Virus record (IMG/VR): IMGVR_UViG_3300032212_000014
Coordinates: 1-50,970 of that record
DNA: 50,970 nt
DNA from: a virus
Taxonomy: Duplodnaviria; Caudoviricetes
Strand: one strand, 5' to 3'
Shown here: positions 6,305 through 19,363 of the stretch, one piece after another
Numbering within the stretch: position 1 is the first letter of the stretch
How the letters are laid out: each line of letters starts with the position of its first letter
Program-made: the position numbers and the translations under genes
The notes under the pieces: model-generated
Told to the model about the DNA's origin: nothing
The model's database searches: none
Seen by the model: only the letters and a program-made list of their open reading frames with translations

Positions 6305-7625
6305 CGTGATCTCCGAGCACGGTTTCGAGCAAGGCGACAAGGCGGCCTTGCTGAAAGAGTGCTTCTTTCAGGAGATCGATTGAATCAGACGATTTAGGTT
6401 TCGGTTTCGGGTCCGAGCTTCCCCCCCGGAGGGGGGCCTCTTTTGCTCTGAACCCTAATAATGACCCCAGCGGGATTTGAACCCGCGTTGTCTGATTGTT
6501 CGATCTCGGCGGCGCTGAACCCCCAAGGCCGATAGTTAGCGGGGTTGCAAACGCCGGGAATCTAAATGCTCCATCGGCACCATCATCATCTCCGCCTTCA
6601 TGTTGCTTGTCAAGTTGGGTACGCACTTGCTTGCGTGTTTTCGGCCCCAGATTGGCGAGGTCGCGAGTGCTGTTAACATCGCAACTCAAGTAGTGATCGA
6701 ACATTACCTTCGGGTCTGCGTGCCGTGAAAAAAAGTGTAATCTTTTTGCTTGATCCACAGTTGCGACATCATACCGAGTCTGGATTGCACACTTTCGGAA
6801 CCGATGCCAACAGCCTCGCACCACTTCACTGGTCTCGATCCCGCACGCTGCCATATCGAGCTTGAGCGTGTTGTGATCCGGCCACTTCTCAAAGAGCATA
6901 CAACCGGTTGAAAACTTCTTCCACTCGATAAGGATTTCAACAATCTCGTCACTCAGCGCCACACGATCACCACGGCGAGCCTTGTCGTCCGTCACGACCA
7001 TACAACGCTTTTCGAGGTCGATGTCCGACCACTCTTGCCGTCGCGATTCAGTCCGCCTCATGCCCGTGTGATACAAGAACTGATACACCGTCGAACGCAG
7101 GGGACCATTCGCCCTGGCCTGCCATCGTGTTTTCTCACAATGCTTGGCGTACTCAACCAGCTTCTCATATTGTTCGTAGGTGAAAGGGGCAAGCGGCTTG
7201 CCTCTGGGCGCTCGCGGTGTCTTGATGCCCACAAATGGGTTCACTGGCAACAACTGGCTCTTGACCAAGAACTTCGCGAAGTCACGAATCGAGCTCAGTT
7301 TGTTCTTCGCCGTCTTGACCTGCCCATTGCTACACATTTCACCAAGCCAATCCATCAGCGGTAACACCTGCATGTCCTGTGGACACGCGATATTGCACAC
7401 GGCAATGTATTCGCGGACATGACGCTCCTTTGATTTCACAGTGCTCGGCCTCTGTTGAAGCCAGTTGATGCGATTGGACGCCCAGGATTCTATCAGTACT
7501 TCCATGCCGGACCCTTTGCAATCGTCCGCCCCAATAAGTTGTATCGATCCATTCCGACTAGGATCGTGATACGGTGATGTTATCCGGGTTTTTAACCCAC
7601 TGTCAACAAAAACTTTACGATACAT
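6267..7625 (-). CDS. int: tyrosine integrase (start may be 7505)
   Basis: HTGMRRTE (R), WHRFRK (HxxR) and SRHAD...HY catalytic residues; GCAAAGG RBS before the Met at 7505. Confidence 0.92.
   Translation of the reverse strand: MYRKVFVDSGLKTRITSPYHDPSRNGSIQLIGADDCKGSGMEVLIESWASNRINWLQQRPSTVKSKERHVREYIAVCNIACPQDMQVLPLMDWLGEMCSNGQVKTAKNKLSSIRDFAKFLVKSQLLPVNPFVGIKTPRAPRGKPLAPFTYEQYEKLVEYAKHCEKTRWQARANGPLRSTVYQFLYHTGMRRTESRRQEWSDIDLEKRCMVVTDDKARRGDRVALSDEIVEILIEWKKFSTGCMLFEKWPDHNTLKLDMAACGIETSEVVRGCWHRFRKCAIQTRYDVATVDQAKRLHFFSRHADPKVMFDHYLSCDVNSTRDLANLGPKTRKQVRTQLDKQHEGGDDDGADGAFRFPAFATPLTIGLGGSAPPRSNNQTTRVQIPLGSLLGFRAKEAPLRGGSSDPKPKPKSSDSIDLLKEALFQQGRLVALLETVLGDHDEHGHSADRDQS
6409..6455 (-). other. 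GC-rich interrupted hairpin immediately downstream of the attP core
   Basis: GGGTTC-AGAGC...CCCCCC TCC GGGGGG...GCTC-GGACCC on the minus strand; no U-tract. Confidence 0.5.
6462..6497 (-). other. putative attP core: 3' fragment of a host tRNA (Glu/Asp-like)
   Basis: Minus strand AATCAGA-CAAC-GCGGG TTCAAAT CCCGC-TGGGGTC-A gives a T-arm plus acceptor 3' strand with no matching 5' half; it lies within int. Confidence 0.75.
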
Positions 7626-7871
7626 AAACTCCCCTAAATACGATCAGGCATTAAAGGGGGGAACTTATACGATTTTATACTTTTGGGATATTCACAAAAC
7701 AGCCATAATCCTAAATAGCAGGAATTAAGGCCGGAATGTTAATCTGGGGTACTCTGATGAGAAGCGTTATAGGGCTTAAACCTGATCCGCCTGTCGATTC
7801 CGTCGCGTATAACCGCGATAGGCCAGGTAGAAAACAGGCCCATATTCTGAATACGGAACAACCCACACGAA

Positions 7872-7945
7872 CCCATAGCGATAACAGGCGAGAGAATACA
7901 CCCGTTTCAATCGCCTTGGGCGCTGATTCCTGTTTCGCTTATGGG
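7872..7945 (-). ncRNA. predicted three-way-junction structured element downstream of the tRNA cluster
   Basis: CCCATA/TATGGG, GCGA/TCGC and AACAGG/CCTGTT helices enclose two small hairpins. Confidence 0.45.
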
Positions 7946-7960
7946 AAGTGTTCATCGTAA

Positions 7961-8034
7961 TAACGAGAGCGGGATTTGAACCCGCGACTACCGGCTTATG
8001 AGGCTAGCGTTCTACCAGACTGAACTATCTCGCA
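7961..8034 (-). tRNA. tRNA with CAT anticodon (Met/fMet/Ile2 unresolved), no encoded CCA
   Basis: TGCGAGA TA GTTC AGTCTGGTA GAAC G CTAGC CT-CAT-AA GCCGG TAGTC GCGGG TTCAAAT CCCGC TCTCGTT A. Confidence 0.88.
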
Positions 8035-8035
8035 A

Positions 8036-8107
8036 TGGGACGGGCAGGACTCGAACCTACGCATACGGGCACATCGTCCCGCACTCTGCCAACTGAGTTA
8101 CCGTCCC
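8036..8107 (-). tRNA. tRNA-like gene with non-canonical anticodon loop (isotype undetermined)
   Basis: Perfect acceptor GGGACGG/CCGTCCC, D-arm ACTC/GAGT and T-arm GTAGG TTCGAGT CCTGC; anticodon arm GCGGG-ACGATGTG-CCCGT. Confidence 0.75.
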
Positions 8108-8215
8108 AAACGACTCTGCGTCCTGCCAACTAGACGAATGGCCTGCCGCTCGCCGATCAAAGCGATTGGCACCTAGGAAAGCCATACAGGACTCGAACCT
8201 GTGTTTCAGAGTTAA
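8108..8215 (-). ncRNA. circularly permuted tRNA-like gene (3' half 8215-8178, 33-nt linker, 5' half 8144-8108)
   Basis: TTAA CTCTG AAAC ACAGG TTCGAGT CCTGT ATGGCTT T - linker - AGGCCAT TC GTCT AGTTGGC AGGAC G CAGAG TCGTTT; the halves pair in both the acceptor and anticodon stems. Confidence 0.8.
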
Positions 8216-8288
8216 TGTTCCATTCGGGGCTTGAACCCGAGTCGCCGGGATGAAAGCCCGGTGTTCTGGCCAACTAAACTAATGGAAC
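8216..8288 (-). tRNA. tRNA-Glu(TTC), no encoded CCA
   Basis: GTTCCAT TA GTTT AGTTGGCCA GAAC A CCGGG CT-TTC-AT CCCGG CGAC TCGGG TTCAAGC CCCGA ATGGAAC A. Confidence 0.93.
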
Positions 8289-8431
8289 ATCTCCGTCTTA
8301 CTTGGGACTCTTACCCCGCCATTGAGCCCCCGTAGACGGCAAGGGGCAGGCGCTTTCCTCAACGCATCGCAGTACTACGAATACGATCAGTGTAAATCAA
8401 CAATCCATCGAAACAGGCTCATCGCGATCTC

Positions 8432-8656
8432 CTAAGCATGGGAGGGGACTGGATCGAAACGCATACGACGCAACACCAAAACAACAGATTCAGGTGTCAC
8501 AGGACGCCGATAGCGAGATGAAAAACTAAAGTTCTTAAAATTATCAATGTCATCAATGGTCAAAGAACCACACTTGCCCGAACGAGGCCAGCGACCAGAC
8601 GCAAGCAAGCCAACGCGGTAAGAACCAGATGAAATGACAGGGGTGAGCGAATCCAT
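8432..8656 (-). CDS. hypothetical protein (74 aa)
   Basis: Start MDSLTP after GCAAAGGAGATCGC RBS. Confidence 0.5.
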   Translation of the reverse strand: MDSLTPVISSGSYRVGLLASGRWPRSGKCGSLTIDDIDNFKNFSFSSRYRRPVTPESVVLVLRRMRFDPVPSHA

Positions 8657-8744
8657 GCGATCTCCTTTGCATGAGTTGTTGAAATCCGCGAGGGAAGCCG
8701 TCGCCTCCGAGCCACATGAGGGCTTGCACATCACGCGGTCGTGT

Positions 8745-9047
8745 TCAAAGTGAACCGGAAATCGATTCCAGGTTCGTGATATGAGAAAACAAAGTCGTCA
8801 GATCAGATTCAACGAATCCAAGCAAGCTGCTATCCCCTTGCTTGTCTGATTGCACAGGCGATGGAGGCATATGGCCTGAGCCCGAGATCGAAACGATCTT
8901 CTCGCTGAGCGACAACGAGAGCTTGGATACCCGCTCATTGACATCAGCAAGGTTTCGAGCAATGTTACCAATACGCTCAGCTGTAGAGGCTGGTGTTGCT
9001 GATCCAGATATTGCTGACATTTCAGCTTGGATGGAGGCGGTGTTCAT
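8745..9047 (-). CDS. hypothetical helical/coiled-coil protein
   Basis: Start MNTASIQ after GAGGA RBS; heptad-like Ile/Leu pattern. Confidence 0.6.
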   Translation of the reverse strand: MNTASIQAEMSAISGSATPASTAERIGNIARNLADVNERVSKLSLSLSEKIVSISGSGHMPPSPVQSDKQGDSSLLGFVESDLTTLFSHITNLESISGSL

Positions 9048-9091
9048 ATCGTTTCCTCTCGATTGTGGTTGTAAACGCAGGTCATGTAAAA

Positions 9092-9241
9092 CTCCAACAG
9101 CGAGAATCGAACTCGCGGGGTCGCTATCTCTTTCGAGACACGGGATGACTCCCATCTAGGCACCATGTTCGCAGTGCCGCCCCATCTACCCGAGTTGATC
9201 AAGCTCGGTAATCCGCCGATTGCCAAGACGGTCTATTGGAA
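9092..9241 (-). ncRNA. about 150-nt tRNA-like RNA with expanded multi-hairpin variable domain
   Basis: Acceptor (T)TCCAATA/TGTTGGA(G); D-like arm CCGTC/GGCGG; anticodon-like arm CCGAG-CTTGATCAA-CTCGG; three tetraloop hairpins closed by GGGG/CCCC; T-arm GCGAG TTCGATT CTCGC. Confidence 0.75.
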
Positions 9242-9304
9242 TCCGACTGCTCCCTGAGGACAAACAGTCGGGGGGTGTGCGAATCCATGCGATCTCCATC
9301 ATGG

Positions 9305-9319
9305 AAAGTTAGTGTACAC
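9305..9319 (-). promoter_or_regulatory. GYGWWCRCTAAC motif heading the leftward RNA/integrase unit
   Basis: GTGTACACTAACTTT; related copies at 15978, 21826, 32124 and 38916. Confidence 0.55.
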
Positions 9320-9685
9320 AAACTCAGAGGGAGGGTTGTGGAAAAGATGAAAAAATTTGAGATAGGAGATAGGGGAGGTTTATCAGTATTGTAAGGCCGG
9401 GGGTCCGGGGTCGGGGCCGGGCCTCTGATCGGGCGGGCGGGCGAGCTCGAGCCGATGTTAGCGAGTACTTACTAACCCCGTAAACCGCGTTTTTACGCTG
9501 CAAACCGTGTAGGGCGTACCATGGCAGGGGGTGTATGACACGAAGGGCACCCATCGTGCCACGATATCGGCGAGCCGTGGAATAGGGGTAAGGCGAGCAC
9601 GATTGAGGGGTCTAAAGCTGCCTTCTATCTCTCTCTTGCCCCCCTGAATCCCTGTTCTTCCATCTCGTGTATCCTACCATCGGCT

Positions 9686-9988
9686 ATGAGTATCCGCCTG
9701 AATCTACGCTTGCCGCCTTCGACGGTATCCCGCGCCCGCATTATCCGTGCAGTATCTAAGCGGCTTGGGGATCGTATCGAATGGGGCGATATGATGGAGC
9801 GGGGTATCGGCCCTATTGAGGATCAGCTCAAGAGCGATTGTAAGCGTATGGGCGTGAACTATGACCGCTTGTTGCTTGAGTGTCTCAAGAGCATGAACAA
9901 TGGAGCGAACGAGAACACCCCTACTACCCGTGCCTATGAGTATGCACCTAGGCCCGGCGCTGGCTTTGTTGATTCGGGCTTATCCTGA
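9686..9988 (+). CDS. hypothetical protein (possible DNA-binding protein)
   Basis: 100-aa ORF, first rightward gene; alternating N-terminal pattern IRLNLRL reminiscent of ribbon-helix-helix. Confidence 0.5.
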   Translation: MSIRLNLRLPPSTVSRARIIRAVSKRLGDRIEWGDMMERGIGPIEDQLKSDCKRMGVNYDRLLLECLKSMNNGANENTPTTRAYEYAPRPGAGFVDSGLS

Positions 9989-10093
9989 CTATGGGTGTTT
10001 TGTTCATTCGGGCTGTTGAGCATCTACGCTTCTGATTGTCTATGAATATCTTCGCTTTGGGTGTTTATTGTGGGTATCGCTGCAATTTGTCGC

Positions 10094-16425: not shown

Positions 16426-19008
16426 ATGGGTGGCCATCCGTTCATCGCAAAGGCTCCCGATGGGGCGACTTATTACGGCAACAATCTTGCCCTGCTTTGC
16501 CGTGAACACAAGCTCAACAAAGACTTGATGAACAAAGTCAGGCAAGGCATTGTCGCAGACCATCGCAAGTGGACTGTTCGTGAAGCCACCGACTTTGAAA
16601 TCGCAAACCTCGGTGATCCTCGCGGTAATCCAAAGGTTGATGTTCCTAGAGATGAAACCGACGCGATTTCCATGGTCATGGATATGTATGCGCCCGGCTC
16701 TGAGCACACCGCTCCATCCGATCCGCGTGAACTTGTCAAGCTGCTCGCCAACGCCCAGGCACAAATGGCCTTTGGTGTTCATGTCTTGGGCAAGGAACCG
16801 CCGACTGGCTGGAACCCTGCACAAATCAACGCCACGATCACGCACCTTTGCACCACCCATGGTATCGACCGCAAGCACGCCGAGGACTATCGCACCGCCG
16901 AAGAGAGGGTCATGGACGCCATGACCGAGCTCATCGGTAACAGCGCTTCTATCTGGGAAGCCGAAGATGAAATCCTCGCCACACTTGAGCAGGAAATGAT
17001 CGGTGTTCGCGACGGCGGCGAAGAATATCTACGCATCCTTGAAAAGTTCCCCGCAAAGTCGCTGCTCCCCGAGAGCCAGTTGCCCGCCGGCCAAGACCCG
17101 GAGGCACCCCCCGGCCCAAAAACAATAGCGGCGGTCGCGTCTAAATGGATTGATCGCATCCGCCGCGTCCGTCACCTTGCACACCGAGCACAGACCGATT
17201 CGATCCCAGGCATGAGCCGGCGCGAGAAGATGATCAGCCAAGCGACCCACACGCTTCGTTATCAGCTCTATGTCAACCGATCAGGAATCATGATCCGTCA
17301 CAAGGGGATGAAGAAGAAGAACAATGTATTTACCATCGGCCCCCCGCATATCCGTATGTCGATGGGCTTGTTCTTCTCTCGCAACCGATACGGAATCACT
17401 GACCAGGGCATTCTTGCCCCCGGTGAAAGTTATATCGTCGATGGCAAAGAGACTCCATTCCCCGGCGCTGATTACACGGGCACCATCTGGATGATCCCCC
17501 CTCGCCACGGCAAAACCGATGAGCTCAAAGCCGTGGTCGGATTAGAGATCGGTCTCAATCCGCGAGTCCAGATTGGCTATGTCCACGATGTCGATGAGGA
17601 AGCGAAGAAGTTTAAGAACTCCGTGGAGCGCATGTTCCACCGAGACAACGATCAAGGCCGAAGAAACTACAGGCTCTTTCCCTACGAGCTCGATGCAAAG
17701 CAGAACGATGCCAATATGCTGCGCGTCAAATGCAAAGATCCTCCAAAGACCCCGAACCTTGTGGTCGGTGGCGTCTTTGGATCTGCGCAGGGTTTGGATC
17801 TTGACCTGCTTATCGGCGATGACCTTGTTCCCCAGCGAGACAACCATCAGCCAGGCACAAGAAAAAAACGGCTCACCGCTTGGGCTGGCACTTGGGTCAC
17901 TCGATTACAAGGCGAGAACCCTCATATCATTCTCTCGGGCTATCCCCGCCACTTTCAGGATCTCATGTGGACCAAGTACAAAGAGGCTTTGGAAGCTGCC
18001 AAGTCTCAGTTCCGCCGCGGTGATCCGATGTGGGTTCTTCGCATGCCTGTCGGCGATACAAAGTCATCACCGAAGTTCAAAGCAATCTGGGATTACTACG
18101 GACCCGCCGCGCTTCGCCGTCGGTATCGCCAGTTAAGTTCGCGAGCAACCTGGGCCGCCAACTACGGACTCCATCCGATCACCGACGATATGAAGCTCGT
18201 CAAGAATGTTCGGATACTTGACAAGAACGATCCAAAGGTGATCGAAATGCTCAAGGCCAGCGAGAACCATCTCAACATCGACCCGGCGGCCAAGGGTGAC
18301 GGGCTCAATGATATGGCCGGGCTTGTCGTGCTCTCTGTTGGGAGTCTCGAATGGGTTGACACAAACGAGTTCGGCAAAGTACAGAACAGCGAAACACTCG
18401 CGGTTGTTCGCATGGCGCGTGAGTTCCACGCCACCCAGACCGAGATCACCCAGGAAATGATGGAAGTCTCTCAGTCGTTACCGATTCACCAGGCGAATGT
18501 CGAATGCGTGACCGGCCTAGGCTCGGCCATCATCGAGATCCTTGAAAACTACCACGGCGTCTATGGGGTGAACCCGATCGGCACCGGGAACCTCAACAAG
18601 AAAGCGCGATTCAAAGCCGTCGCCGGTATGCTCGAACATCAGCCGGGGATTGTTCCCGCAAAGGTCGCGTTCCTTGGCGAAAAAGAGCGTGACGAAAACG
18701 GGAACATTATCGAGGACTCACCGTTGCAGGTGATCGAATCGCAACGCCGGCTCTTGGAGTATGTCGTCAACTACGCGGTTGAGGAAGGCTTCCACTCCCT
18801 CGATGCCCTCACCCAAGGCTGCCGCCAGCTCATGCCGGTCATCGGTGTTGGCGAAGGCGAGTTCAGTGCTCAAGTTGAGCAGGATATGTACGAGGGCAAG
18901 GACAAGAACAAGTGCAACATCATCAAGAAAATCAAGATCGATACCAAAAGAAAACAATCGCATAGTGCCGGGCGGCGTCGCTTTGGCATGTCCACTTTAC
19001 AGGTTTGA
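16426..19008 (+). CDS. terL: terminase large subunit with long N-terminal extension
   Basis: MIPPRHGKT (Walker A), DLLIGDD (Walker B), NIDPA...ND and LDALTQ nuclease motifs. Confidence 0.9.
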   Translation: MGGHPFIAKAPDGATYYGNNLALLCREHKLNKDLMNKVRQGIVADHRKWTVREATDFEIANLGDPRGNPKVDVPRDETDAISMVMDMYAPGSEHTAPSDPRELVKLLANAQAQMAFGVHVLGKEPPTGWNPAQINATITHLCTTHGIDRKHAEDYRTAEERVMDAMTELIGNSASIWEAEDEILATLEQEMIGVRDGGEEYLRILEKFPAKSLLPESQLPAGQDPEAPPGPKTIAAVASKWIDRIRRVRHLAHRAQTDSIPGMSRREKMISQATHTLRYQLYVNRSGIMIRHKGMKKKNNVFTIGPPHIRMSMGLFFSRNRYGITDQGILAPGESYIVDGKETPFPGADYTGTIWMIPPRHGKTDELKAVVGLEIGLNPRVQIGYVHDVDEEAKKFKNSVERMFHRDNDQGRRNYRLFPYELDAKQNDANMLRVKCKDPPKTPNLVVGGVFGSAQGLDLDLLIGDDLVPQRDNHQPGTRKKRLTAWAGTWVTRLQGENPHIILSGYPRHFQDLMWTKYKEALEAAKSQFRRGDPMWVLRMPVGDTKSSPKFKAIWDYYGPAALRRRYRQLSSRATWAANYGLHPITDDMKLVKNVRILDKNDPKVIEMLKASENHLNIDPAAKGDGLNDMAGLVVLSVGSLEWVDTNEFGKVQNSETLAVVRMAREFHATQTEITQEMMEVSQSLPIHQANVECVTGLGSAIIEILENYHGVYGVNPIGTGNLNKKARFKAVAGMLEHQPGIVPAKVAFLGEKERDENGNIIEDSPLQVIESQRRLLEYVVNYAVEEGFHSLDALTQGCRQLMPVIGVGEGEFSAQVEQDMYEGKDKNKCNIIKKIKIDTKRKQSHSAGRRRFGMSTLQV

Positions 19009-19024
19009 AAAGGAGATCCAAACC

Positions 19025-19363
19025 ATGAAATCAATAGAACAAATCCAAGAACTCAAGGGCCTATTCAAGCCACGAAACAACCATGTTGTTTTGGTGCTCG
19101 ACGAGGCAATGGTCAAGACCGAGGCGGGCTTGCATATTCCAGAGGTCGGCGTCGCCCAATCAGTCACCGGGCAGGTTGTCGAGGCCGCGATCAAAGACAA
19201 AGAAGATCCTGATGTTGAGCTCAGACCCGGCGACCGTGTGTACTTCAACGCGTTCGCTGCACAAAAGCTGACCATCGGCGATGCCAAGATCATTGTTGTT
19301 CAAAGCGAAAACATCATGGGGACTATCAACTCCGCTGAGATCGTCAAGGAGGACAACTCATGA
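19025..19363 (+). CDS. groES: co-chaperonin GroES
   Basis: FKPRNNHVVL...KTEAGLHIP...GQVVE...LRPGDRVYF...ENIMG; AGGAG RBS. Confidence 0.9.
   Translation: MKSIEQIQELKGLFKPRNNHVVLVLDEAMVKTEAGLHIPEVGVAQSVTGQVVEAAIKDKEDPDVELRPGDRVYFNAFAAQKLTIGDAKIIVVQSENIMGTINSAEIVKEDNS

Follow-up and report, generated by a model that had tools for sequence, protein, structure and literature searches.

As set out in two reports (Chen et al. 2014, PMC4201824; structure preprint 10.1101/312249), YrlA RNAs carry a tRNA domain in which the T-arm precedes the D-arm and the acceptor stem is closed by a loop. In Salmonella, YrlA was found not to be cut by a DNA-damage anticodon nuclease, and the RNA was proposed to act as a competitive inhibitor (PMC7790460). 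An engineered, circularly permuted and nicked tRNA-Leu with the same topology was treated as a nicked tRNA by both RtcR and RtcB (PMC10159003). Known permuted tRNAs require a bulge-helix-bulge motif and EndA (PMC4033280).

The YrlA-type tRNA domain is known; what is new is a stand-alone version of it in phage tRNA arrays, where it forms a large and unannotated class. A literature search, which mostly covered sources other than subscription journals, returned no title or abstract describing permuted tRNA mimics free of Ro60 in phage tRNA arrays. tRNA callers miss or mis-call such units. They bear on the question of what tRNA arrays do for phages: a selected tRNA body without anticodon loop or CCA would mean that these arrays do more than supply decoding tRNAs. 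The locus analyzed here was brought up by an earlier note, which described a tRNA gene split at the anticodon loop with its halves in swapped order and took it for either a ligated permuted tRNA or a pre-nicked, YrlA-like mimic.

Structure of the permuted unit

The window, which is the whole stretch of DNA analyzed, comprises the 50,970 nucleotides of virus record IMGVR_UViG_3300032212_000014. The permuted tRNA-like unit spans 108 nt of its minus strand (8108..8215, -), and its bounds coincide with the predicted processing sites of both neighbours. Transcribed first is the 3' half of a tRNA, which runs through U73 and lacks an encoded CCA (8178..8215, -). It consists of a 4-nt overhang TTAA (8215-8212), the 3' strand of the anticodon stem CTCTG (8211-8207) with the 4-nt variable loop AAAC that ends in C48, the T-arm (8202-8186) and the 3' strand of the acceptor stem ATGGCTT (8185-8179), followed by the T at position 73 (8178). 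A linker of 33 nt (8145..8177, -) closes the acceptor stem; it starts with the palindrome CCTAGG, continues as a predicted two-stem hairpin and is the longest among the 39 units described below, with an acceptor loop of 34 nt. The 5' half is transcribed second (8108..8144, -) and contains the 5' strand of the acceptor stem AGGCCAT (8144-8138), U8, the D-arm (8135-8120) with G15 and a GG in its loop, G26, the 5' strand of the anticodon stem CAGAG (8118-8114) and the 6-nt overhang TCGTTT (8113-8108). All of these parts lie on the minus strand, and the order of 3' half, 33-nt linker and 5' half is as the earlier note had described it.

The two stems claimed there, a 7-bp acceptor stem with one G-U and a perfect anticodon stem, were recovered as well, with 7/7 pairs in the acceptor stem (one G-U) and 5/5 Watson-Crick pairs in the anticodon stem. 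The letters that build the tRNA elbow are all present, namely G15-C48 (the Levitt pair), U8, A14, the GG of the D-loop and the T-loop UUCGA. Position 8215 adjoins the discriminator of a tRNA-Glu gene (8216) and position 8108 adjoins the +1 (8107) of a pseudo-tRNA, and the unit indeed fills the gap between the two genes exactly.

The minimum-energy fold of the isolated unit is the permuted cloverleaf. Its stability is modest (z -1.82; 9/200 shuffles were equally stable), and within a 341-nt precursor the anticodon, acceptor and D stems of the unit were predicted with probabilities of 0.15-0.36. Energy-folding models disregard tertiary contacts. With our own detector, dinucleotide-shuffled windows yielded a unit with 7 and 5 pairs in 0/200 cases and one with 6 and 4 pairs in 1/200.

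The element order agrees with a single Logan contig that covers positions 7000-10000 unbroken at a mean depth of 40.7 and without differences, the underlying run being possibly the source of the window and not an independent one. A misassembly was rejected, as this contig is continuous across the unit. A scar of phage integration was likewise rejected, since the att core lies elsewhere (6460-6490).

The phage and its tRNA array

The phage is temperate and has a circular genome; the record has a terminal repeat of 127 bases and a completeness of 80% as estimated by CheckV. It encodes a terminase, an integrase, ERF and YqaJ recombinases, a single-stranded DNA-binding protein (SSB) and a helicase. 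Among the 34 terminase relatives in the matches listed, the sole name bearing an organism is that of a Phycisphaerales genome. In 72/77 genome matches, a stretch of 29 bases (6490-6462) corresponds to the 3' terminus of a tRNA-Glu gene, 21 of the 77 titles naming Planctomycetota by our own count. Positions 6490-6460 (-) are probably the attP site, corresponding to the 3' end of a host tRNA-Glu gene, a reading made because the Logan contig breaks at that very site, and the host is likely a member of the Phycisphaerae. The probable attP falls within codons 378-388 of the 452-codon integrase reading frame, and integration would thus alter the C-terminal tail of the integrase; the phage also has a tRNA-Glu(UUC) of its own.

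The minus-strand array contains, in this order, tRNA-Glu, the permuted unit, the pseudo-tRNA and tRNA-Met. The upstream neighbour, tRNA-Glu(UUC) (8216..8288, -), scores 65.7 bits and its CCA is not encoded. The downstream neighbour (8036..8107, -; 49.2 bits) has a non-canonical anticodon loop of 8 nt and was called as tRNA-???, and the last gene is a tRNA-Met(CAU) (7961..8034, -; 59.9 bits). The pseudo-tRNA (8107-8036, -) has its D-loop and 14 bases of its T-arm in common with the permuted unit, and together the two are adjoining non-decoding tRNA bodies.

Upstream of the array, at 9196-9089 (-), a second tRNA-like element was noted, in which an acceptor-like stem is stacked on a T-arm and a three-hairpin junction replaces the D and anticodon arms (folding z -1.22); Rfam gave no match to it at E values up to 5. 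A leader resembling GGAGATCGCATGGATTCGC is repeated upstream of the array at about 9300-9270, 8670-8640 and 8435-8415 (-), and looks like a duplicated ribosome-binding site with the start of short reading frames. A promoter scan returned 1 site against 2.0 expected. The sequencing runs listed as holders of the sequence included none of RNA, an outcome that does not bear on expression. Elsewhere, a GroES-like (Cpn10) domain is encoded directly after the terminase gene (18761-19363, +).

Relatives of the locus were sought in several ways. A specific sequence pattern gave 0 matches in viral contigs, and an integrase search found no related loci, the integrase itself standing alone among 8000 candidates scored. 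Relatives recovered with a terminase profile reached only 25-30%, and none of those 80 loci contained a permuted unit. None of 301 Phycisphaerae-class genomes carried a relative of the locus, and blastn against 50,697 phage records matched short pieces of the arms and nothing longer. As no close relative of the array was found, selection on the copy in the window is borrowed from the class described in the following.

Permuted units form a class in phage tRNA arrays

Because an orthologue of the locus was not found, viral contigs were scanned for like units with patterns of T-loops or D-loops that are spaced too closely for ordinary arrays; pairing was not required. The scans yielded 3, 4 and at least 119 loci. 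Together with the window, these 126 loci contained 52 units without overlap to an ARAGORN tRNA, which correspond to 42 distinct cores. Three of the 42 were removed by eye (the duplicate parses L045 and L002/L116, and L070 with a poor D-arm), leaving 39 units including that of the window. At least 38 other distinct permuted units therefore exist in phage tRNA arrays.

Both stems were paired (at least 6 and 4 pairs) in 28/95 distinct hits from the last of the three scans compared to 17/2375 half-swapped controls, and at 7 and 5 pairs the counts were 12/95 and 0/2375. The tertiary pair 15:48 is G-C or A-U in 33 of the 39 units (shuffle p 0.0001). The overall pairing of 90.9% (0/500 shuffles) was counted on rows that had been selected for pairing, and for this reason we rely on the half-swap control and on syntenic orthologues. 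The letters of the T-loop and D-loop were forced by the search patterns, and consequently their conservation is not evidence.

CCA at positions 74-76 is encoded in none of the 39 units. Acceptor loops measure 4-34 nt, with 9 nt or less in 26/39, and the pair 1:72 is variable. In the 16 units with both neighbours parsed, the two open ends together make up 4-21 nt, and a single unit has a total of 7 nt. The 39 units have 13 types of D-arm, which vary as those of ordinary tRNAs do. On a covariance model built from the 38 other units, that of the window scored 54.8 bits, with a runner-up in the window at 29.8; the score is not specific, as junctions of tandem tRNAs attain 57-59 bits. Non-overlap with canonical tRNAs was checked for this reason, and the score is unusable for counting members in genomes. 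In the window's unit both stems are paired, no canonical tRNA overlaps it, it adjoins a tRNA gene and it matches a model built without it, which are all of the features by which the class was delimited. A scan of metagenomes returned 2 loci; each of them contains a class member, neither of which is an orthologue of the window's unit.

Three arrays (L002, L034 and L049) hold two permuted units each, which stand in direct tandem in L034 and L049. The palindrome CCTAGG is found in the acceptor loop of 5/39 units, namely that of the window (8177-8172, -), L018, L037, L059 and L077. Its recurrence had suggested a dimer signal. A targeted scan returned 28 loci with just 4 units, all already known; two of them belong to phages related to each other, and tblastn gave no match between the window and any of the four records. 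A sub-group of eight units (L030, L037, L049, L051, L057, L059, L076 and L114) shares the 5' flank ACG(AG), often with CGT after the unit. Three of these eight are in records with a Ro60 gene, at non-adjacent positions, and because of this co-occurrence some members of the class might yet bind Ro60; the copy in the window does not have that flank.

Compensatory changes in orthologues from cultured phages

Orthologues were chosen by synteny and not by pairing. A unit located after tRNA-Asn was found by blastn in mycobacteriophages of cluster M. Between its four versions (Aziz/GenevaB15, one further record, Reindeer and Rey), the differences within the T, acceptor and anticodon stems are paired ones; the unit of Reindeer keeps 5/7 acceptor pairs. 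In the Vequintavirinae a unit follows tRNA-Lys in 3/6 records and is missing at the syntenic site in PVP-SE1, 4MG and Csp-D17, which indicates that it is dispensable. Four Vequintavirinae versions keep their stems via double, compensatory changes; here the anticodon stem is extended to a helix of 12-13 bp with paired changes, and the acceptor stem has 3-5/7 pairs. A lack of complementarity between the halves in homologues had been named as grounds for abandoning the interpretation; in the syntenic orthologues the stems are instead kept by compensatory changes.

The units of Reindeer, Rey, AV124 and pEa_SNUABM_55 are unannotated. In GenevaB15 an annotated 'tRNA-Leu' overlaps the second half of the unit, and in KE23 a hypothetical reading frame is placed there. 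Since phages of M. smegmatis and E. coli that are in culture carry members, expression, ends and a role as decoy are testable with ordinary tools.

A probable non-decoding tRNA mimic

Taken together, these results make it very probable that the unit is a selected, non-decoding tRNA mimic. The claim of a pre-nicked, YrlA-like mimic is supported by the topology, and also by the family, in which elbow and stems are kept but an anticodon loop is not. That the elbow and stems are kept, but not the ends needed for decoding and charging, agrees with a mimic that can bind proteins and is not consumed.

In the proposed mechanism, the tRNA array would be made as one transcript. Maturation of the 3' end of tRNA-Glu would generate the 5' end of the unit, and a cut by RNase P at +1 of the pseudo-tRNA would generate its 3' end. 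RNase P and RNase Z leave 5'-phosphate and 3'-OH ends. The freed RNA of 108 nt would fold into the L-shape of a tRNA, as in the solved tRNA domain of YrlA, and would resemble a tRNA nicked in the anticodon loop with predicted 5'-phosphate and 3'-OH ends. An anticodon nuclease would have nothing to cut, because the ends of the unit are already open at the anticodon loop. The freed unit could then compete for host proteins that recognise either the elbow of a tRNA or a nicked tRNA, chiefly anti-phage anticodon nucleases, and this competition would shield the real tRNAs of phage and host. We slightly favour such a function as a decoy for tRNA-targeting enzymes of the host. RtcR binds 3'-OH ends more than 25-fold more weakly than cyclic-phosphate ends (PMC10159003), and because of this preference, which does not suit the predicted 3'-OH of the unit, a role as decoy for RtcR is weakened.

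A wider proposal would be that arrays hide widespread RNA-only counter-defence genes, pre-nicked tRNAs that jam anticodon nucleases, and that the copy in the window is in addition opened by RNase P and tailed with CCA to give a natural two-piece tRNA without anticodon. We consider this combination doubtful.

Alternative explanations

The unit might be a neutral relic or a processing spacer, left after the loss of the outer halves of two tRNA copies in tandem, the remnant simply persisting or aiding the cutting of the array. One deletion per side can yield the observed order, the unit is dispensable in some phages, a pseudo-tRNA adjoins it, and the 13 D-arm types among 39 units fit repeated origins. 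However, the compensatory changes in syntenic orthologues and the covariation of 15:48 show selection on the fold at the level of the class, and debris would not be expected to fit both neighbours exactly. A relic is therefore unlikely.

The unit might also be opened as is YrlA of M. smegmatis, by an RNase P cut at 8144, after which the linker would be trimmed and CCA added to give a chargeable two-piece tRNA without anticodon. Such an RNA could soak up a synthetase, EF-Tu or toxins acting on the CCA end. The 34-nt loop, the longest of the 39, the CC that follows U73 and the 7-bp acceptor stem speak for this, and it is to a 7-bp acceptor stem that RNase P cleavage of the M. smegmatis YrlA was credited (PMC4201824). 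On the other hand, the bases immediately upstream of the cut at 8144 are predicted to pair within the linker hairpin, and CCA is not encoded. Because loops are 9 nt or shorter in 26/39 units, opening is not the purpose of the class; it could be a side fate of the window's copy. We regard both the opening and the sequestering role as rather unlikely.

A third explanation is a minimal Y RNA that binds Ro60 (Rsr) of the host and tethers or diverts PNPase, in the manner of Ro60 and the Yrl RNAs of phage phiLo. The unit shares its topology with YrlA, and the YrlA model (RF02553, gathering cut-off 69 bits) gave scores of 23.5-37.7 bits, below that cut-off, to 12 units in 11 of 20 loci tested. On 8108-8215 itself the model had no match at E values up to 10, and its only match nearby is a weak one of 24.3 bits over the junction of pseudo-tRNA and tRNA-Met. 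A strong match, which according to the earlier note would have placed the unit in a known class, was not obtained; nor is the unit unique, since it belongs to a widespread class. The reciprocal model of 38 units served as positive control and recovered true YrlAs (70-75 bits) in Phycisphaerae-class genomes, beside Ro60 and sometimes RtcB.

Ro60 searches were performed with TROVE (PF05731) and repeated with PF25045 and a custom profile, because PF05731 alone misses real Ro60 genes. Neither a TROVE, a vWA_Ro60 nor a custom-profile match was found in the phage genome, and the absence of Ro60/Rsr and of RtcB from the phage, claimed on inspection of the letters, was upheld by the profile searches. 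Ro60 was found in 5/40 unit-bearing virus records (3/15 near-complete ones; two of the five are near-duplicates). Among 150 sampled genomes of the likely host class, 8 carry YrlA and the same 8 carry Ro60 above cut-off, which speaks for this explanation; in the remaining 142/150, many of them incomplete, Ro60 above cut-off was not found, which argues against it. RtcR was present in 18/150. The Ro60-binding motif GNCGAA(N)G, which 5/7 host YrlAs contain, and the long terminal stem are both absent from the released unit.

The upstream tRNA-Glu contains a near-motif in its 3' end, CCCGAAUG and then GAAC (core CGAAUG), which was noticed post hoc; CGAA(N)G occurs in 3/388 tRNA tails. It counts in favour of a Y RNA, yet it would leave with tRNA-Glu, and in the folded precursor its pairing to the 3' end of the unit had a probability of 0.0. 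Judged from its letters, CGAAUG-GAAC in the tRNA-Glu tail is a hint of YrlA ancestry that would depart with the tRNA. A minimal Y RNA appears distinctly unlikely for the window's copy. In a Phycisphaerae-class genome (L292:1486-1800; G123), a tRNA array ends in permuted tRNA domains on long stems, together with a repeated GAGCATACAAAC motif; the YrlA scores of these domains are 43 and 37, and no Ro60 match was found in that genome.

Finally, the unit could be a true permuted tRNA, whose ends would be trimmed and ligated to a 7-nt loop with GUU, whose linker would be removed and to which CCA would be added for decoding of Asn. All parts of a tRNA are there, with a full 7-pair acceptor stem and a long linker. 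When the halves were swapped in silico, ARAGORN did call a tRNA, and in four joins giving a 7-nt loop it called tRNA-Asn(GUU), but the anticodon called shifts with the trimming chosen. The loop UC-GUU-AA put forward earlier is possible as a 7-nt join, but it requires the loss of 3 nt; the predicted natural ends (6 + 4) give a loop of 10 nt, and any 7-nt join places C at position 33. No helix of 4 bp that could form a bulge-helix-bulge exists within the overhangs of the unit. Searches of the phage genome found no RtcB, Rnl2-type ligase or EndA (PF01974), the PF01974 control having matched in 4/14 and the search for T4 Rnl1 having matched no control; RtcB is present in 5/40 unit-bearing records. 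The end chemistry does not suit RtcB either, which joins a 3'-phosphate or cyclic phosphate to a 5'-OH (PMC10159003; PMC7790460). Further, the family does not rebuild 7-nt anticodon loops, and in the Vequintavirinae the ends form a helix of 12-13 bp. The claim of a ligated tRNA(GUU) is not supported by these observations: the unit is probably not a ligated decoding tRNA, and decoding of Asn in particular is highly improbable.

Comparison with known systems

The permuted tRNAs of Cyanidioschyzon merolae, green algae and Thermofilum pendens have the same order, with the 3' half first and a linker across the acceptor stem (PMC4033280). According to the same source these tRNAs contain a bulge-helix-bulge and are spliced, circularised and decoding, whereas the unit has neither this motif nor EndA nor a 7-nt loop, and its host is bacterial. 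The permuted, nicked tRNA-Leu that Chen and Wolin engineered in 2023 (PMC10159003) is man-made and carries 5'-OH and cyclic-phosphate ends, compared to the predicted 5'-phosphate and 3'-OH ends of the unit.

Yrl1 and Yrl2 of Thermus phage phiLo, with their Ro60, are likewise phage-encoded and Y-like and were proposed to act in counter-defence; as described in PMC12135203, they have a CGAA motif and a neighbouring phage Ro60 gene, and the unit has neither. The 22 phage YrlAs listed in the supplement of PMC4201824 may include some Ro60-linked members of the present class.

With YrlA (RF02553) the unit shares the order of T-arm before D-arm, the loop-closed acceptor stem, ends that lie in the anticodon-side stem and the Levitt pair. 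In contrast to YrlA, it is without the Ro60-binding motif, the long terminal stem, a Ro60 gene and a match to the YrlA model. In YrlA the motif is placed near the 5' end, in a long stem made by both ends of the RNA, and a Ro60/Rsr gene is encoded on the same strand at a distance of up to about 4 kb; YrlA also binds Ro60 and carries pseudouridine 55 and dihydrouridine. The unit's D and T stems (GUCU/GGAC and ACAGG/CCUGU) differ from those of host YrlAs (GCUC/GAGC and mostly GCGGG/CCCGY), and unlike YrlA it sits within a tRNA array, where its ends are set by the neighbours. As the class separates the tRNA domain of YrlA from Ro60, the unexplained role of this domain becomes testable alone. From the comparison of sequences, the best reading of the unit is that of a stand-alone, orphan tRNA domain of the YrlA type rather than a member of YrlA.
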